Shown here: positions 51,063 to 57,858 of the stretch, in pieces
Layout: each line of letters begins with the position of its first letter
Numbering within the stretch: the stretch's first letter is position 1
DNA from: an uncultured Candidatus Saccharibacteria bacterium
GTDB lineage: Bacteria; Patescibacteriota; Saccharimonadia; Saccharimonadales; Saccharimonadaceae
Assembly (NCBI GenBank): GCA_964428955.1
Contig: CAYSAD010000001.1
Location: 19,561 to 83,560, forward strand
Reading direction: 5' to 3'
DNA length: 64,000 nt
Notes under the pieces: generated by a model
Databases searched by the model: none
What the model was told of the DNA's origin: nothing
Seen by the model: the letters and a program-made list of their open reading frames with translations, nothing else
Translations under genes and position numbers: made by a program

Positions 51063-52295
51063 TTACATATACCGCGTACTGCCGAACGGAATCTTGGCGC
51101 GCATGATGTGGTCAGTCGACAAAGTATCGGCCGAGTGAATAGCCCGCGCACCGTAGCGTTGGTTGATAGTATCAACCGCGCCAGTCATAGCCTGGTCACG
51201 AGCTAGTTCATCGCCAAACAGATTCAGCTGCGAATCGTCTGGCTGACTCAGCCCATAACAGGTAACACCAATTTCTTTGACCGTCTCTGGTGCGTGCGCA
51301 AACAACTGCCGGACTTGCTCGTAAATTGCTTGGTTACTAAAAAACGGCAAGCTGGCCATGTGGCGAGCATGCCAATAACCACGGTCGTAGCTGCGGGCAT
51401 GCACCTGGACACCGCGCGCTACCAAGCCCTGAGAACGAACCTTAGCGCCAACTTCCTCACATAAATGATGTAATCGCTGTAAAACTTCGGGGCGTGATAG
51501 TTTATATGACTCCAGTACATATTGCCGGCCGGCACTTTTTAAGGTGAAATCGCGCTTATCGACTTCCCAGCCACGCAACCGCTGGTACCACTCGTCACCA
51601 CAGACGCTCTTGAACACTATCTTACGTAATGTCACCGGATCGGCATCTAAAAACTCCAGTGGCGTGAAAATGCCAACGGCATTCAACCGCGCATGGAGAT
51701 GCTGGGCTATGCCGGTCAGGTCCTCCAGTTCGAGCCCGGCGTAGACAGCCCGTAGATTGTCGGCTGAAATGACGTCGAGACCATCGGGTTTATGCAGGCC
51801 GGCGGCGGTTTTGGCTAAGAAACGGTTCGGCCCGATGCCGACGTTGCAAATCATGGCCCGTCCGATCTCATCCCGCAGACGCTGTTTGATTTCACAACCA
51901 ACGTCAACGAGATTCCGACGAGCAATCTGATGGGTCGTTTCTGAAAAATCAATCACGCCCTCGTCGATACTTTTCATCCTCACATGGGCCGAATAGTCAT
52001 TCATGATCCGCATAAGCTGATGGTAGACATAGCGATACTTCGGTGGATCACTCTCCAGCCCGATCAAATCCGGACATAAAAGCTTGGCATCCTTAAGGCG
52101 CATACCAAGCTTAACGCCCATCGCTTTCGCCTCGTAACTGGCCGTTACAATCGTTGTGTGTTCGGTGCGACGATTGACGATAGCCACCGGGCGGCCGCGC
52201 AGCAGCGGCCGGGCTTGCTGCTCGACGGTGGCAAAGCAGCTGTTGAGATCGATATGCATGATAACTGGCGATACCTGGTTATAATCGCTTCTCAT
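51063..52295 (-). CDS. dinB: Y-family DNA polymerase (DinB/Pol IV-like)
   Basis: 410 aa. HIDLNSCFATVEQ (catalytic Asp), SYEAKAMGVK, SIDEGVID. Confidence 0.9.
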   Translation of the reverse strand: MRSDYNQVSPVIMHIDLNSCFATVEQQARPLLRGRPVAIVNRRTEHTTIVTASYEAKAMGVKLGMRLKDAKLLCPDLIGLESDPPKYRYVYHQLMRIMNDYSAHVRMKSIDEGVIDFSETTHQIARRNLVDVGCEIKQRLRDEIGRAMICNVGIGPNRFLAKTAAGLHKPDGLDVISADNLRAVYAGLELEDLTGIAQHLHARLNAVGIFTPLEFLDADPVTLRKIVFKSVCGDEWYQRLRGWEVDKRDFTLKSAGRQYVLESYKLSRPEVLQRLHHLCEEVGAKVRSQGLVARGVQVHARSYDRGYWHARHMASLPFFSNQAIYEQVRQLFAHAPETVKEIGVTCYGLSQPDDSQLNLFGDELARDQAMTGAVDTINQRYGARAIHSADTLSTDHIMRAKIPFGSTRYM

Positions 52296-52555
52296 AAGTG
52301 GTCGCCTTCGCGCGTCAAATGCCAGGTCAGCCGCTCGCTGTCGAATTCCAAGCGATAGTCCGCCTGCGAATCGGTCACATCGAATATATGCATCGTTCGC
52401 TGGCCGCTCGTCGTCGGGTGGCGCAAACCTATCTCGTTAATTATGATTTCACGCCCATTAGTGCGTCGAAATTTTATCGGTTTACAGGGATTTAGGCCGA
52501 TGCCGAACGTTGCTACTACGTCAACCCGTTCGTTCAAAAAAAGTTCATCATCCAT
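52292..52555 (-). CDS. Hypothetical 87-aa protein translationally coupled (ATGA) to the Y-family polymerase
   Basis: ATG 52555 with AGAGGAAG SD. Its TGA overlaps the dinB ATG. No family recognised. Confidence 0.6.
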   Translation of the reverse strand: MDDELFLNERVDVVATFGIGLNPCKPIKFRRTNGREIIINEIGLRHPTTSGQRTMHIFDVTDSQADYRLEFDSERLTWHLTREGDHL

Positions 52556-54010: not shown

Positions 54011-54087
54011 TGGTAGCAGCGACTGGAATTGAACCAGTGACCTTAGGCTTATGAGTCCTACGCTCTAACCAACTGAGCTACGCTGCC
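54011..54087 (-). tRNA. tRNA-Met (CAT), elongator type
   Basis: The D-arm GTAGCTCAGTTGGTTAGAGC and GGTCAC variable/T junction resemble E. coli elongator tRNA-Met. Anticodon loop CTCATAA, G1-U72, encoded CCA. Confidence 0.85.
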
Positions 54088-54561: not shown

Positions 54562-55287
54562 ATGGACACGCTTCACGCATTTATCATTATCGTCGCCTGT
54601 GGACTCATCCACGCCAGCTTCCAGCTCAGCATTAGCGTACTGACATTACTTAGTGGCCATGCCATCGGAGCACGTGCCAGTCATGCTCGCGTACTTCGCC
54701 TGAGTGGTAGCTTCGTAGCAGGTGTAGCCGTCGCGACGACACTTATTACCTCGACCAGTGCACTAGTGCTGCTGTCGCTGTTCGGTTCATCCACTGTTCC
54801 ACTTTTGGCCTGGACCACAGCTTGCGGTCTTATGATTGGGCTGGGAGTTTCCATCTGGAGTTTTTACTATCGCCGCGAAACTGGTACAAGCTTATGGCTG
54901 CCGCGAAGCATCGCTGGCTATCTGACACAGCGCTCCAAAGCCACCAAACACAGCGGGGAAGCCTTCGGTTTAGGCCTCACTAGTGTTTTTAGTGAATTAC
55001 TCTTTATCATCGTCCCAACCATCGTGGCGTCGCTGACGCTCATTCAACTTTCACCCACTCTGCAGCTCACTGGCGTGTTGACCTATACTGCCATCTCCCT
55101 GTCGTCATTGTTTATCGTCGCTAGCCTCATTGGAGCGGGTCATAAACTCAGCACTATCCAAAAATGGCGTGAAACCAATAAATCGTTCCTGCAATTCGTC
55201 GGCGGTGCCGGACTACTGATACTAGGATTCTACATCTATGTCGAAAACGTGACGGCCGCATTCGCCTATTCTGGAGGAATCTACTAA
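54562..55287 (+). CDS. Six-TM membrane protein with paired ACGL motifs, hypothetical
   Basis: 241 aa. VACGLIHAS in TM1 and TACGLMIGL in TM3. First gene of a tight 3-gene operon. Confidence 0.65.
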   Translation: MDTLHAFIIIVACGLIHASFQLSISVLTLLSGHAIGARASHARVLRLSGSFVAGVAVATTLITSTSALVLLSLFGSSTVPLLAWTTACGLMIGLGVSIWSFYYRRETGTSLWLPRSIAGYLTQRSKATKHSGEAFGLGLTSVFSELLFIIVPTIVASLTLIQLSPTLQLTGVLTYTAISLSSLFIVASLIGAGHKLSTIQKWRETNKSFLQFVGGAGLLILGFYIYVENVTAAFAYSGGIY

Positions 55288-55288
55288 T

Positions 55289-55570
55289 ATGCCCGCCGTT
55301 GACATCATCAAGCACAGCGGGCAACGACCTAGCGAATCGTTCGATCAAGCTAAGTTGCATCAGAGTGTGCTGGCCGCCTGTCTGAGTGTGCGAACACCGG
55401 AAGGTGAAGCTGAACATATCGCCAAGCATGTCAGCCGAGCCGTCGGTCAATGGTGTCAGCAAAAACCGGAGGTCACCTCGCACGATATCCGCCGCGTAGC
55501 CGCCGACGCCCTGAACGCCTTTCACCCCGAAGCGTCTTACTTATATAAACAACACCGGGTAATCATCTAA
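55289..55570 (+). CDS. Stand-alone ATP-cone domain protein
   Basis: 93 aa. VDIIKHSGQRPSESFDQAKLHQSVLAA matches the ATP-cone start pattern (v.KrdG..e.Fd..Ki). GGAGGA SD. Starts 1 nt after the upstream stop. Confidence 0.65.
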   Translation: MPAVDIIKHSGQRPSESFDQAKLHQSVLAACLSVRTPEGEAEHIAKHVSRAVGQWCQQKPEVTSHDIRRVAADALNAFHPEASYLYKQHRVII

Positions 55571-55582
55571 GGAGCCGTCGGT

Positions 55583-56956
55583 ATGCCGAAAAAAACTCAT
55601 TTCGATTATGACCTCATTATTATCGGTAGCGGGGCCGGTGGCAGTGCCGCGGCGACCATCGCTGCCAGAAACGGCAAGAAGGTAGCTATTATCGAAGCCG
55701 ATACGTTTGGTGGCGATTCACCGAACTGGAGTGACGTCCCTACTAAAGCCCTGTTGCATGCCGCCCAAATTTATGACGAAGCCAAACATGCTGCTCGTTT
55801 TGGCCTCCGCTCCAGTACGCTCGGTTATAACTACCCCAGCCTGCGTACCTGGAAAGAATTGGCTGTCAAACGCACTGGTGCGGCCGGCAATCGCAAATAT
55901 TACGAAGACCAAGGCATTACCACCTTCCATGGCGTGGCCCATTTCCTAAGTCCCAACGAAATCAGTGTCAACCGCCGTCACCTCTCAGCCCGTCATTTCC
56001 TGGTTGCTACCGGCTCACATTGGGTCGCGCCAAATATCCAAGGCTTGAAACACATCGACTATCTGACACCGCGGACTATCCTTGAAGCTATCCGGCCACC
56101 AAAAAGTCTCTACATTATCGGCGCAGGTACGATTGGCGTAGAGATTGCTCAGCTGATGGCAACATTCGGTACGAAAGTTTATTTGGCTGAGATTGCCGGC
56201 CGCATCTTACCTCGAGAAGACGAAGAGGTCGGCCTGTTACTGGAGCGGCTCTTGAAGGAGCAAAAAGGTGTTACGAGTCTGACACAAACGCGAACACTGG
56301 CAATCGTAAAAGACGGCCCAAGTAAACGAGTCAGCTTTACGCGCGGTGGTATCGAACGTTCGGTGCGTGTTGACGAAATCCTGGTCGCGACAGGTCGCCA
56401 ACCGACCGTCGACATCGGTCTGGAAAATGCGACGGTCACCTACTCGCCTAAAGGTATCGAGGTTAACGATTATCTACAGACTAGCGCCCGTCACATCTTC
56501 GCTGCTGGTGACGTGCTCGGCCATGATTCCCACACCCACACAGCTTTTTTGGAAAGTCGCACCGTCGCACAAAATCTAAAAGGTAAAACAAAAATCAAAC
56601 CCGACTATACTGCCACGCCGCGTCTCAGCTTTACCTATCCGAGTATTGCGTCGGTGGGTTTGTCTGAAGATGACTGCATTAAGCGCGATCTTGCCATCAA
56701 CAAAGCGCTCGTCCCGCTGAATATGATTGCCCGCAGCAACACCAGTGATTTCCGCGACGGCTTTTGTAAACTTATCACTGATAAAAGAGGTGTCATTCTC
56801 GGTGGCACGATCGTCGCACCACACGCTGGCGAAATGATTCACGAAATAGCTCTGGCGGTCAAATACAGCATGAGCGCCACTCAGCTGGCTGCCACGCCAC
56901 ACGCTTTCTTAAGTTGGAGTGAAGTAGTTAAGCTGGCAGCGAGTAAATTAGCGTAG
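55583..56956 (+). CDS. Class I pyridine nucleotide-disulfide oxidoreductase homologue (Lpd/GR-like) lacking the redox-active CxxxxC
   Basis: 457 aa. FAD GxGxxG (IIIGSGAGGSAAA) and NAD GxGxxG (IIGAGTIGVE) are present. The site GGxCxNxGCxPSK reads GGDSPNWSDVPTK. Confidence 0.88.
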   Translation: MPKKTHFDYDLIIIGSGAGGSAAATIAARNGKKVAIIEADTFGGDSPNWSDVPTKALLHAAQIYDEAKHAARFGLRSSTLGYNYPSLRTWKELAVKRTGAAGNRKYYEDQGITTFHGVAHFLSPNEISVNRRHLSARHFLVATGSHWVAPNIQGLKHIDYLTPRTILEAIRPPKSLYIIGAGTIGVEIAQLMATFGTKVYLAEIAGRILPREDEEVGLLLERLLKEQKGVTSLTQTRTLAIVKDGPSKRVSFTRGGIERSVRVDEILVATGRQPTVDIGLENATVTYSPKGIEVNDYLQTSARHIFAAGDVLGHDSHTHTAFLESRTVAQNLKGKTKIKPDYTATPRLSFTYPSIASVGLSEDDCIKRDLAINKALVPLNMIARSNTSDFRDGFCKLITDKRGVILGGTIVAPHAGEMIHEIALAVKYSMSATQLAATPHAFLSWSEVVKLAASKLA

Positions 56957-57168: not shown

Positions 57169-57246
57169 TGGTTGCGGGGGTAGGATTTGAACCTACGACC
57201 TTGTGGTTATGAGCCACACGAGCTGACCAGACTGCTCCACCCCGCG
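57169..57246 (-). tRNA. tRNA-fMet (CAT), initiator type
   Basis: C1xA72 mismatch at the top of the acceptor stem (CGCGGGG / CCCCGCA). Anticodon loop CTCATAA, but only two G-C pairs at the bottom of the anticodon stem. Encoded CCA. Confidence 0.85.
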
Positions 57247-57277: not shown

Positions 57278-57721
57278 CTATTGCAAGCTCCTGGAGTTGC
57301 CACCAAATATGAAATTCGTCCACTGTTCGAAGTTACTCGGCTTAATAGAGCGTACCGGCTGGGCAGCATCGGCTTTTTGATCAGATACTGTGGCGACTTT
57401 GGAATTCGGTGGTAAAATCAATACTTTCTCTCCAGGACTGGCCAGTCCCAAACGATCGCGCACGGCCAGCTCCTGATACTCGGCACTTTTGTAGTAACGC
57501 TGTTCGTACGTCAGATTTTGTGCCTCAAGTTCCAGCAGTTTTTCTTCACGTTTCTTGCTATCGACTTGCTTCTGCAAGTCATAGTTGCGCTGCATGACAC
57601 CGATTGAACCCCAGGCCCAACTAGCAGCGATAAAAAGCGCCACTATAATGACGGCATTATTAAGTGTCATGTAATCGTGACGGATATGATACCAGTTGCG
57701 ACGGATGTTTATTTTTTTCAT
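57278..57721 (-). CDS. FtsB/DivIC-like septum formation initiator
   Basis: 147 aa: one TM helix, then a leucine-zipper-like coiled coil and the motif AVRDRLGLASPGEKVL typical of the family. Confidence 0.7.
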   Translation of the reverse strand: MKKINIRRNWYHIRHDYMTLNNAVIIVALFIAASWAWGSIGVMQRNYDLQKQVDSKKREEKLLELEAQNLTYEQRYYKSAEYQELAVRDRLGLASPGEKVLILPPNSKVATVSDQKADAAQPVRSIKPSNFEQWTNFIFGGNSRSLQ

Positions 57722-57782: not shown

Positions 57783-57858
57783 GGGGGCGTAGCTCAGTGG
57801 TTAGAGCAGTTGGCTCATAACTAATTGGTCGCTGGTTCAAGTCCAGCCGCCCCCACCA
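57783..57858 (+). tRNA. tRNA-Ile2 type (CAT, lysidine substrate)
   Basis: D-arm TAGCTCAGTGGTTAGAGCAG and TTGGTCGCTGGTTCAAGTCCAGC are identical to E. coli tRNA-Ile2 as I recall it. Anticodon loop CTCATAA, encoded CCA. Confidence 0.8.

Follow-up and report, generated by a model that had tools for sequence, protein, structure and literature searches.

A conserved gene module of Saccharibacteria, evidently once Cys-based, encodes a Cys-less relative of the flavoprotein disulfide reductases

The 64,000-nucleotide stretch of Saccharibacteria DNA analyzed here (the window) encodes a 457-residue homologue of the class I flavoprotein disulfide reductases in which both redox cysteines have been replaced. 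Profile, structural, and genomic comparisons show this flavoprotein to be the putative FAD- and NADH-binding component of a membrane-associated module of three proteins. The explanation that we favor overall, and hold to be somewhat probable, is that the module is a conserved NADH/FAD membrane system that was formerly Cys-based; a former thiol-based system now evidently performs some thiol-free job. The genes lie in the order 6-TM membrane protein, 93-residue putative ATP-cone protein, and flavoprotein. The ATP-cone gene starts 1 nucleotide past the stop codon of the membrane-protein gene and ends 12 nucleotides ahead of the flavoprotein start. The features discussed below are as follows.

54562..55287, + strand: first gene of the module, a 241-residue polytopic membrane protein, apparent Cys-less descendant of a CcdA/DsbD-type TM domain
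54625..54627, + strand: Leu22 codon, at the position of the TM1 redox Cys (DSINPC21) of the ancestral-type protein, by hhalign column mapping
55003..55005, + strand: Phe148 codon, at the position of the TM4 redox Cys (ELPC145TGAP) of the ancestral-type protein, by hhalign column mapping
55289..55570, + strand: second gene, a 93-residue stand-alone putative ATP-cone protein
55583..56956, + strand: third gene, the Cys-less class I flavoprotein disulfide reductase homologue, 457 residues
55625..55642, + strand: FAD-binding GxGxxG motif, G15-S-G-A-G-G20 (G15, S16, G17, A18, and G20 invariant in alignment A1)
55709..55747, + strand: rewritten disulfide loop G43-G-D-S46-P-N48-W-S-D51-V-P-T-K55 (canonical GGxCxNxGCxP[ST]K), placed by MerA/Lpd structure alignments
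56120..56191, + strand: NAD(H) site G180-A-G-T-I-G185 ... E203 (acidic, end of beta-2, NADH type)
56675..56677, + strand: Cys365 (EDDC), the sole conserved Cys of the flavoprotein (78/79 sequences)
56900..56923, + strand: C-terminal interface motif H440-A-F442-L-S-W445-S-E447 (H440, F442, W445, and E447 invariant in A1)
57169..57246, - strand: tRNA-Met (CAT), a syntenic landmark just downstream of the flavoprotein gene, shared with Southlakia epibionticum (SEML1_0739)

The flavoprotein, which includes FGGDSPNWSDVPTKALLH, has the two Rossmann domains and the dimerization domain of the class I pyridine nucleotide-disulfide oxidoreductase superfamily, with scores above the gathering thresholds (Pfam Pyr_redox_2 PF07992, E 2.5e-51, 175.3 bits; Pyr_redox_dim PF02852, E 2.1e-22, 79.8 bits). 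Its AF2 model (pLDDT 86) matched Lpd (2qae) and MerA (5x1y) in Foldseek with a TM score of 0.91; its confidence was low at residues 41-50 and 70-81, where the rewritten loop lies. MerA gave the top match in both NCBIfam (339.5 bits) and the PDB (5x1y, E 3.6e-68), and the protein fell below every curated cut-off of the NCBIfam equivalog models. The FAD and NAD motifs, which an earlier sequence-only reading of this DNA had described as retained, are present. At the NAD(H) site Gly-180 and Glu-187 are invariant and position 203 is acidic in 79/79 sequences (Glu in 43, Asp in 36). Position 203 is also acidic in the ancestral-type relatives described below, whereas a MerA-type relative has ILQRSNR instead. 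These features indicate a probable NADH-type rather than NADPH-type nucleotide site.

HMM alignments to MerA (5x1y) and Lpd (2eq6 and 1ebd) placed 'ggdspnwsdvptk' opposite 'ggtcvnigcvpsk' and 'ggvclnvgciptk', confirming the earlier assignment of the first redox Cys position to Ser (Ser-46, codon TCA, 55718-55720) and of the second to Asp (Asp-51, codon GAC, 55733-55735). With both cysteines replaced, canonical dithiol-disulfide chemistry is impossible, as had been concluded, and the choice then offered, between some other type of flavin oxidoreductase and a scaffold, is still the right one. The claim of a retained C-terminal region holds for the dimerization domain itself but not for a His...Glu catalytic pair. 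When HAFLSWSE is aligned to HAHPTLGE, His-440 corresponds to the first, non-catalytic His, and Phe-442 occupies the position of the catalytic His of Lpd or Tyr of MerA-like enzymes. Glu-447 is kept, and the HxxxxE dyad of E3 enzymes is absent because the His position is Phe-442. This Phe was already present in the Cys-bearing ancestors (HAFPTWSE). The C terminus (...KLAASKLA) is without Cys.

Few parts of the flavoprotein are as conserved in the window's lineage as the rewritten pocket. Across 79 sequences Ser-46 was found in 76, Asn-48 in 77, and Asp-51 in 75; in a 38-sequence alignment Ser-46 and Asn-48 were invariant and Asp-51 was at least 90% conserved. Lys-55, normally invariant beside the flavin, is Asn in 23 of the 79. 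A homologue search showed that the loop recurs, with an identical 17-mer in 104 of 120 close homologues and near-identical ones in the remainder, and the motif [DE]SPN[WFY][SG]D is almost invariant across more than 100. A sequencing or assembly artefact, a caveat attached to the earlier claim, was rejected on this conservation and on a dN/dS of ~0.01; because the motif is shared among homologues, the substitutions are not strain-specific.

Public annotations name homologues of the flavoprotein 'dihydrolipoamide dehydrogenase', and an ancestral-type relative barely reaches the TIGR01350 cut-off (409.2 against 408.8 bits). The window protein scores 328.5 bits on this model, below that cut-off, and has neither the CxxxxC motif nor the His base. 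Moreover, the 99.99%-complete genome gave no match to the E2 catalytic domain (PF00198) or to lipoate ligase/transferase (PF03099), and no match to the lipoyl domain (PF00364) above the Pfam cut-off, the single hit being sub-threshold at 19.5 bits. Without an E2, a lipoate ligase, or an above-cut-off lipoyl domain in the genome, the flavoprotein is by all appearances not an E3. That it is instead a decaying, function-less relic conflicts with a dN/dS of 0.01, with intact frames in all genomes searched, and with its presence in every same-family genome listed. We give negligible credence to either a genuine dihydrolipoyl dehydrogenase or a relic, and as far as sequence can show both are refuted. 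The expectation of the sequence-only reading that no E3-requiring complex would be found was thus borne out. Its picture of an obligately fermentative organism was not, since the genome encodes an NDH-2-like flavoprotein, heme-copper oxidase subunits III and IV, a UbiA-type heme prenyltransferase, and an Fe/Mn SOD. An intact TrxB (CATC) is encoded elsewhere in the same genome.

The window's membrane protein had no Pfam match of its own. An hhalign comparison of its orthologue alignment (A2) with that of Cys-bearing relatives (A4) gave a probability of 98.4% and an E of 4.5e-15 over 217 columns, and the Cys-bearing relatives pass the Pfam DsbD_TM cut-off (31 against 27.1 bits). A Foldseek search of the AF2 model (pLDDT 91.7; helix breaks at residues 20-22 and 145) against the PDB returned no significant match (best E 0.097), so the homology rests on hhalign and Pfam. 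By these comparisons the protein is homologous to the DsbD_TM domain, and an independent structure-based annotation labels an orthologue a DsbD_2 domain. CcdA/DsbD transporters have two essential redox cysteines, in TM1 and TM4, one per repeat half; the window protein has Leu-22 and Phe-148 at these positions. Leu-22 is invariant in A2 and Cys-21 in A4; likewise Phe-148 is invariant in A2 and Cys-145 in A4, with Phe also in the intermediate locus L087. A thiol relay through Cys-13 and Cys-88 ('ACGL' cysteines) of the window protein was considered and rejected, neither residue being conserved.

The window's putative ATP-cone protein scored 24.4 bits against Pfam PF03477 (cut-off 25.8) and reads KHSGQR at the N-terminal K-R...E.F...K motif of the family, and 30/30 orthologues match the family (best E 3.6e-9) with the consensus VIKRxGxRPxExFDxxKL. 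To our knowledge this domain is otherwise known nearly only from the control of ribonucleotide reductase. Cys-31 of the ATP-cone protein was rejected as a redox carrier because it is absent in the ancestral-type loci L094 and L095.

Among 80 related loci the ATP-cone gene lies directly upstream of the flavoprotein gene in 80 and the membrane-protein gene lies upstream in 79. The same order occurs in independent contigs and persists in lineages that are merely 42-49% identical. Matches to the module were found in all 44 listed genomes of the same family and in the window's own genome, and class-wide in 58/201. As deep-lineage context, the P0134 genome scan gave no match, and the metagenome scan did give matches. 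All three genes are under strong purifying selection, with dN/dS values for the unsaturated pair L018/L019 of 0.010 (flavoprotein), 0.037 (membrane protein), and 0.108 (ATP-cone protein). From their synteny and tight gene spacing, the three proteins may physically associate. The three-gene module and its Cys-bearing form had gone unremarked in the sequence-only reading.

A minority of Saccharibacteria retain a fully Cys-bearing module, with CPNYGC in the flavoprotein and CcdA/DsbD-type NPC and LPC motifs in the membrane protein. In loci L092-L097 the flavoprotein has GGECPNYGCVPTK ... RVAC and the membrane protein has DSINPC21 and ELPC145TGAP, both invariant; these loci also encode an ATP-cone protein and one further, His/Cys-rich protein. 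The latter is exported and carries HWH...HEH...H.E motifs and six conserved Cys; it had no Pfam, NCBIfam, or PDB-sequence match, and no homologue of it was found in the window's genome. In a tree of 152 sequences every outgroup has CxxxxC. L097 and L109, which have both cysteines, branch first, followed by L087 (CPNWGD) and then by a Cys-less clade of 51 sequences (SH-aLRT 98). L109 combines a two-Cys flavoprotein with a Cys-less membrane protein, and the membrane protein of L087 has Val and Phe at the two Cys positions. Cys-365 is first seen at the L097/L109 node; the L092-L096 type lacks it. The P0152 genome scan for the next Cys-bearing outgroup returned only generic relatives of ~30% identity.

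At the level of sequence, these comparisons show that the module descends from a Cys-based version surviving in a few Saccharibacteria. They likewise show the apparent course of change in the window's lineage: in the flavoprotein Ser-46 and Asp-51 replaced the two redox cysteines and Ala replaced the C-terminal Cys, Leu-22 and Phe-148 took the place of the redox cysteines of the membrane protein, and the exported His/Cys-rich protein was lost. The membrane cysteines were probably lost first, then the flavin-proximal Cys (to Asp), and then the interchange Cys (to Ser). The module context together with the ancestral Cys form explains the substitutions.

The likeliest present role of the module, to which we give nearly even weight, would be that of a membrane-tethered, adenylate-modulated NADH:acceptor oxidoreductase. 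The FAD of the flavoprotein would take hydride from NADH, and at the membrane surface the electrons would then go to a non-thiol acceptor (O2, a quinone, or a bound metal or small molecule). The CcdA-derived protein would be an anchor or a conduit, and the ATP-cone protein would tie activity to the adenylate or deoxyadenylate pool. Soluble transhydrogenases provide a precedent for thiol-free chemistry in this fold, with CXXXXT/YXXXXE and in one case SXXXXT motifs; they have NAD(P)H-oxidase activity and respond to ATP, ADP, and AMP (PMC9460512). For Mycobacterium tuberculosis LpdA the annotation is NAD(P)H quinone reductase (PMC9213004). In TM7x, lactate is made under anoxic but not micro-oxic conditions (PMC12815258), so some other route of NAD+ regeneration exists; the module would be a possible physiological fit to that micro-oxic route, a lead only. 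Against an oxidoreductase role stand the non-essentiality of the module in Southlakia epibionticum co-culture, the Asn that replaces Lys-55 in 23/79 sequences, and the low AF2 confidence at the rewritten loop. In addition, fast-evolving lineages largely rewrite the si-face pocket while the module persists, a sign that not all lineages need it.

That same dispensability of the pocket, with the NAD and FAD motifs kept, is what would be expected of a sensor or regulatory pseudo-enzyme, the main rival to an oxidoreductase and in our view possible but doubtful. By analogy with nucleotide-binding cytosolic subunits that regulate membrane transporters, the flavoprotein would report NADH/NAD+ and the ATP-cone protein ATP/dATP, and both would gate a Cys-less membrane protein of the LysE superfamily that would now be an ion, metal, or metabolite transporter. 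This superfamily, which includes DsbD/CcdA, consists mostly of metal and amino-acid transporters (PMC10319644), and polar residues within the membrane (H17, H33, E133, E145, Q168, Q200, R203, and E204) have stayed invariant in the membrane protein despite the loss of both redox cysteines. ATP-cones are regulatory modules, and the genes have a non-essential phenotype in Southlakia epibionticum. However, a dN/dS of 0.01 and the invariance of S46, N48, D51, H440, F442, W445, and E447 in the window's clade resemble a catalytic or substrate site, and a full 457-residue FAD enzyme is a costly sensor for a 0.75-Mb genome. The module might also be a previously undescribed membrane redox device specific to Saccharibacteria, NADH-powered and gated by adenylates through the ATP-cone; we consider this distinctly unlikely. 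Here the ex-disulfide pocket (D45, S46, N48, and D51 with H440', W445', and E447' of the other subunit) would be catalytic for a non-thiol substrate, such as a hard metal ion or small oxidant, handled together with the CcdA-derived protein. Such a device would mean that a Mer/CcdA-type system switched from thiolate to carboxylate/hydroxyl chemistry.

Two further readings draw on particular relatives. The top NCBIfam and PDB matches are to MerA, and the order of membrane protein, small protein, and reductase parallels the merT-merP-merA order of mer operons. An ancestral module might have handled a thiophilic metal through the exported His/Cys-rich binder, whose His-rich motifs and six conserved Cys fit such a part, a Cys-lined membrane protein, and a MerA-like reductase. 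It would since have been re-tooled for a hard metal, e.g. Fe(III) or Cu(II), reduced beside the flavin, with thiolates swapped for the carboxylate/hydroxyl ligands D45, S46, and D51 and with H440' and E447' of the other subunit. The replacement residues are indeed typical hard-metal ligands and highly conserved, but the flavoprotein has no canonical MerA features (no C-terminal Cys pair; an NADH- rather than NADPH-type site), the small protein is an ATP-cone rather than a metal-binding domain, the His-rich protein is missing from the window's genome, and the membrane cysteines became hydrophobic Leu and Phe, not ligands. We regard this reading as very unlikely. Fainter still is the prospect of a convergent soluble transhydrogenase, in which SxxxxD/FxxxxE would mimic CxxxxT (SxxxxT)/YxxxxE and the ATP-cone would supply in trans an adenylate control like the adenine-nucleotide sensitivity of the transhydrogenases (PMC9460512). 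The flavoprotein scores 213.2 bits on NF003585 (cut-off 465), the invariant acidic residue at 203 disfavors NADPH binding, and the obligatory membrane partner is left unexplained.

A literature search found no prior description of the module, and its function has been called 'unclear in these bacteria' (Starr 2018). The genome, like those of Saccharibacteria in general, is tiny (0.75 Mb), the module is kept in every sampled genome of the family, and dN/dS is ~0.01, so the module must do something useful. It pairs an ATP-cone with a flavoenzyme, and its relatives form a rare, naturally preserved series (full thiol form, loss of the membrane thiols, loss of one flavoprotein thiol, thiol-free form) in which the catalytic cysteines of two presumably interacting redox proteins disappear one after another under continued selection. 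Because the genes are non-essential in Southlakia epibionticum, a genetically tractable species, the role of the module can be tested directly.

The Southlakia epibionticum cluster SEML1_0736-0738 is orthologous, with identical synteny that includes the downstream tRNA-Met and a septum-formation gene. Each of its genes has an annotation of its own, the first as a DsbD_2-like hypothetical protein, the second as an ATP-cone protein, and the third as an NAD(P)/FAD-dependent oxidoreductase; all are 'core family' and were scored NE/NE/NE (non-essential) by Tn-seq in co-culture (Wang et al., Cell 2023, PMC10633639, Tables S1/S2). The main text of that paper does not contain the terms oxidoreductase, ATP-cone, flavoprotein, dihydrolipo-, NADH, or mercuric, so the cluster appears there only as supplementary-table rows, and the Cys loss and the module are not noted.

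With the group comprising MerA-like enzymes, 'PRK06370 FAD-containing oxidoreductase', and Lpd, the window flavoprotein shares the fold, the FAD and NAD(H) motifs, the dimerization domain, and 30-34% identity. It differs in having no CxxxxC, acid-base His/Tyr, C-terminal Cys pair, or lipoyl/E2 partner, and it scores 339.5 bits on the MerA model (TIGR02053; cut-off 454.45). The transhydrogenases SthA/UdhA, including the SXXXXT enzyme of Streptomyces avermitilis, are superfamily members that also gave up the redox disulfide and work via the flavin alone (PMC9460512). Nevertheless, the loss was independent, as the window protein branches with MerA-like enzymes and not with the transhydrogenases; its motifs are SXXXXD and FXXXXE, with Asp rather than Thr at the second position, its site is of the NADH type, and its gene is in an operon with membrane-protein and ATP-cone genes. 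M. tuberculosis LpdA lacks part of the disulfide/His-Glu apparatus, and we know of no membrane or ATP-cone partners for it. This protein (Rv3303c) is Lpd-like and annotated as a quinone reductase, not a lipoamide dehydrogenase (PMC9213004), but the window protein lies on a different family branch (NF005883, 191 of 479 bits).

The thioredoxin system feeds the transmembrane reductant transporters CcdA, DsbD, and ScsB (PMC3322552; PMC10319644). The membrane protein of the module is evidently a homologue of a DsbD_TM-positive protein that has one Cys per repeat half, two in all, and the module parallels TrxB-TrxA-CcdA in its succession of NAD(P)H flavoprotein, small cytosolic protein, and membrane protein. 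In contrast to CcdA/DsbD, however, the window membrane protein is without both essential cysteines, and in place of a low-Mr thioredoxin reductase and thioredoxin it is paired with a class I flavoprotein disulfide reductase homologue and an ATP-cone protein.

The flavoprotein gene is the third of a three-gene module. The module and its flanking genes in the window are as follows.

54011-54087, minus strand: tRNA gene with a CAT anticodon, bracketing the module
54562-55287, plus strand: polytopic membrane protein, 241 aa, first module gene
55289-55570, plus strand: putative ATP-cone protein, 93 aa, second module gene
55583-56956, plus strand: flavoprotein, 457-aa ORF with Pfam Pyr_redox_2, Pyr_redox and Pyr_redox_dim matches
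57169-57246, minus strand: tRNA-Met gene with a CAT anticodon, downstream of the module
57278-57721: 147-aa septum-formation ORF, downstream of tRNA-Met
57783-57858, plus strand: tRNA gene with a CAT anticodon, bracketing the module

The flavoprotein matched Pyr_redox_2 (E 2.5e-51), Pyr_redox (2.1e-15) and Pyr_redox_dim (2.1e-22). A phmmer search of all PDB chains gave the mercuric reductase (MerA) 5x1y as the best match (E 3.6e-68), with many lipoamide dehydrogenases (Lpd) ranked behind it. In the printed alignments the flavoprotein stretch fggdspnwsdvptkall lies opposite vggtcvnigcvpsktll of MerA and vggvclnvgciptkall of Lpd, which places Ser46 (TCA) at the interchange cysteine position and Asp51 (GAC) at the flavin-proximal one, confirming the sequence-only reading that both active-site cysteines are replaced. 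That reading had also seen a retained, differently spaced His...Glu pair. This is not the catalytic dyad: the C-terminal HAFLSWSE aligns with HAHPTLGE of Lpd and APYLTMAE of MerA, with Phe442 at the acid-base position, Glu447 retained, and His440 as the first, non-catalytic His. The FAD and NAD(P) motifs (G15-S-G-A-G-G20 and G180-A-G-T-I-G185) are both conserved, as had been noted, and the FAD and NADH sites are intact; the acidic residue ending the second NAD β-strand (Glu/Asp203), which marks the NADH type, is present in 79 of 79 sequences. An AF2 model (pLDDT 86.2) superposed on Lpd and MerA structures with a TM of 0.91, confidence being low at residues 41-50 and 70-81, the rewritten loop. 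The protein scored below every NCBIfam equivalog cut-off (MerA, 339.5/454; lipoamide_DH, 328.5/408.8; soluble transhydrogenase (STH), 213/465).

More than 100 flavoprotein homologues at 77-83% identity were found in a search of 5.8 billion proteins, the named ones belonging to Candidatus Saccharibacteria/Saccharimonadales. The stretch FGGDSPNWSDVPTKALL was identical in 104 of 120 homologues and differed conservatively in the others, ruling out an artefact as the source of the cysteine replacements. Among 79 distinct orthologues of named genomes, Ser46 was conserved in 76, Asn48 in 77, Asp51 in 75, Phe442 in 77, and His440, Trp445 and Glu447 in 78 each. Few parts of the protein are better conserved than the former disulfide pocket. 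For the loci L018 and L019, a pair with unsaturated dS, dN/dS was 0.010 for the flavoprotein, and its two partners gave 0.037 (membrane protein) and 0.108 (ATP-cone protein); both partners are under purifying selection, and selection on the module is strong, the rewritten pocket included. The flavoprotein gene was found in 58 of 201 genomes of the whole class, in 44 of 44 listed same-family genomes and in the window's own genome; the non-matching rows listed included no same-family genome. The low dN/dS and the presence of the gene throughout the family exclude a decaying flavoprotein. The sole conserved cysteine, Cys365 (EDDC; window 56675-56677; 78 of 79 sequences), sits on the first interface-domain helix (H362-367) of the AF2 model.

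The module genes are separated by gaps of 1 and 12 nt. The 93-aa protein scored 24.4 bits against the Pfam ATP-cone, slightly below the cut-off; all 30 orthologues tested gave a match (best E 3.6e-9), with the consensus VIKRxGxRPxExFDxxKL, and by sequence the protein is probably an ATP-cone. At related loci with sufficient upstream sequence, the ATP-cone gene lay directly upstream of the flavoprotein gene in 80 of 80 and the membrane gene was also upstream in 79 of 80. The order was identical on independent long contigs, and the three genes are always co-located. Metagenomic lineages at only 42-49% identity keep all three in order; most of their pocket has been rewritten (GGTNVNRRDIP, GGSSLNYSNVP). 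On the fast-evolving metagenome contigs L198-L201, the small gene 5' of the flavoprotein encodes 84-91 aa that align to the window ATP-cone only from about residue 18-23 on; the nucleotide-binding hairpin at the N-terminus may have changed or gone missing there. The window's genome has four ATP-cone-bearing genes: that of the module, an 821-aa ribonucleotide-reductase-sized ORF and two NrdR-like proteins (coordinates listed: C4:21457-21720, C2:130427-130687 and C4:90449-90928, the last an NrdR-like protein with a Zn ribbon and a weak ATP-cone).

Across 1.84 billion representatives searched exhaustively with HMMER, the nearest CxxxxC relatives were 43-48% identical. Via the loci of one of these (P0124), six Saccharibacteria loci (L092-L097) were found to carry the same module in a thiol-bearing form. 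Their flavoproteins have GGECPN[YFW]GCVPTK, HAFPTWSE and usually ...RVAC close to the C-terminus, and their ATP-cone proteins are 39-51% identical to that of the window. Their membrane proteins have invariant DSINPC21AIGVL and VELPC145TGAPYL, score 31.0 bits against Pfam DsbD_TM (gathering score 27.1) and match NCBIfam DsbD and ArsG weakly. CcdA/DsbD reductant transporters are defined by having one Cys per half of a two-fold 3-TM repeat (PMC3322552, PMC10319644). Profile-profile comparison showed the window-type membrane proteins to be homologous to this cysteine type (98.4% probability, E 4.5e-15, 217 columns). Cys21 is replaced by Leu22 and Cys145 by Phe148, two residues that do not vary within the clade of the window, and Glu142 is kept as Glu145. 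In the AF2 model of the window membrane protein (pLDDT 91.7), helices are interrupted at residues 20-22 and 145, on or close to the former Cys positions. Thiol chemistry is impossible in both partners (Ser46/Asp51, Leu22/Phe148); for the flavoprotein, the sequence-only reading had already called the canonical dithiol-disulfide chemistry impossible.

The cysteine-bearing loci have a translationally coupled fourth gene encoding a protein of about 300 aa that is exported and anchored in the membrane, with N-terminal TM segments, six conserved Cys and the motifs HWHADIE...LHEHND...RIHLEG.

L092:2119-3015, with equivalents in L093-L097: fourth protein
L087:5364-5978: fourth protein

Searches of Pfam, NCBIfam and PDB sequences gave no match to this protein, and the window's genome lacks a homologue of it. 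Metal binding, or service as a redox substrate, is a possible role. Some CxxxxC relatives have long N- or C-terminal extensions (P0254, 705 aa, match beginning at residue 239; P0171, 627 aa; P0240/P0259, 574-583 aa). Fusion to a membrane or metal-binding domain may account for these extensions, which could then inform the choice of partner in this subfamily.

Maximum-likelihood analysis of 152 family members (IQ-TREE, LG+G4, SH-aLRT support) gave a tree in which all non-Saccharibacteria relatives have CxxxxC. The earliest branches inside a 54-sequence clade (support 96) are L097 and L109, which have CPNWGC. L087 (CPNWGD), which has lost the flavin-proximal Cys and kept the interchange one, comes next. 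It is followed by a Cys-less clade of 51 sequences (support 98), which starts with ESPNWGD and leads to the DSPNWSD of the window. L109 pairs a window-type membrane protein (HASLQL...; 96% homology probability to the Cys type) with a flavoprotein that still has both cysteines; in the L087 membrane protein (97%), NGLHPV and TAAPYL persist as remnants, the two former cysteines being Val and Phe. Together with the branching order, these states indicate that the losses probably began with the membrane thiols; the proximal flavoprotein Cys would next have changed to Asp, and the interchange Cys last, to Ser. Branch support at the intermediate steps is moderate (88). Cys365 arose at the L097/L109 node, where the membrane partner began shedding cysteines. 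The Cys-bearing ancestors already had Phe442, and outgroups have Tyr there; a His base was therefore never in use in the window lineage. NADH-type specificity is predicted throughout, in Cys-bearing and Cys-less forms alike.

The arrangement tRNA-Met/module/tRNA-Met/septum gene/tRNA-Met, with three CAT-anticodon tRNA genes within 4 kb, is the same in Southlakia epibionticum, where tRNA-Met and the septum-formation gene follow the orthologues SEML1_0736-0738 (Wang et al., PMC10633639). Each of these is flagged "core family" and was called non-essential at three of three Tn-seq time points; the module is thus dispensable in laboratory co-culture. Normalised reads fell from T0 to T2 in parallel (2084 to 698, 303 to 90 and 3653 to 756), which has little weight because other non-essential genes drop too. 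Structure-based annotation gave "DsbD_2 domain-containing protein", with UreH-like and cytochrome-c-biogenesis matches, for SEML1_0736 and ATP-cone for SEML1_0737 (PMC10633639). The main text of that paper contains none of the terms oxidoreductase, ATP-cone, flavoprotein, dihydrolipo-, NADH and mercuric, so the cluster occurs in its supplementary tables only. Elsewhere in the window, an 87-aa ORF of unknown family (52292-52555, minus strand) overlaps by 4 nt the start of a 410-aa ORF (51063-52295, minus strand) that by eye looks like a Y-family (DinB-type) DNA polymerase.

The lineage had been taken to be obligately fermentative. The window's genome encodes, in a cluster outside the window (C3:100780-105522), a TrxB-like protein (312 aa, CATC intact), an NDH-2-like flavoprotein (396 aa), a UbiA-family prenyltransferase and heme-copper oxidase subunits IV and III, and at C4:87554-88150 an Fe/Mn superoxide dismutase. 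With these aerobic respiratory parts the organism lives with oxygen and is therefore not a strict fermenter.

Our tentative reading, to which we give slightly under an even chance, is that the flavoprotein would act as an NADH:acceptor oxidoreductase with chemistry at the flavin alone, that the CcdA-derived protein would hold it at the membrane, and that the ATP-cone protein would modulate its activity by adenine or deoxyadenine nucleotides. In TM7x, lactate production ceases under micro-oxic conditions (PMC12815258), which, as a lead only, would fit an O2-linked route of NAD+ regeneration. The fast-evolving lineages that keep the module without conserving the pocket weaken readings that depend on the pocket, and keep alive an NADH/adenylate sensor gating a LysE-type transporter, which we consider unlikely. 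A Mer-like metal reductase with hard ligands is improbable, and a convergent transhydrogenase, against which the acidic residue at position 203 speaks, similarly improbable. An E3 or a relic is highly improbable: the 749-kb, 99.99% complete genome yielded no E2 catalytic domain, lipoate ligase/transferase or lipoyl domain above the Pfam cut-off, in keeping with the earlier view that such lineages typically lack a 2-oxoacid dehydrogenase complex needing an E3.

A literature search found no description of the three-gene module, of the ATP-cone partnership, or of concerted Cys loss in both partners with living intermediates. Cys-deficient members of the superfamily are already known, and bare Cys loss alone is not new. 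The proposed oxidoreductase, with its thiol-free flavin chemistry, would have precedents there in the soluble transhydrogenases, which have CXXXXT or SXXXXT with YXXXXE, oxidase activity and a response to adenine nucleotides (PMC9460512), and in Mtb LpdA, annotated as a quinone reductase (PMC9213004).
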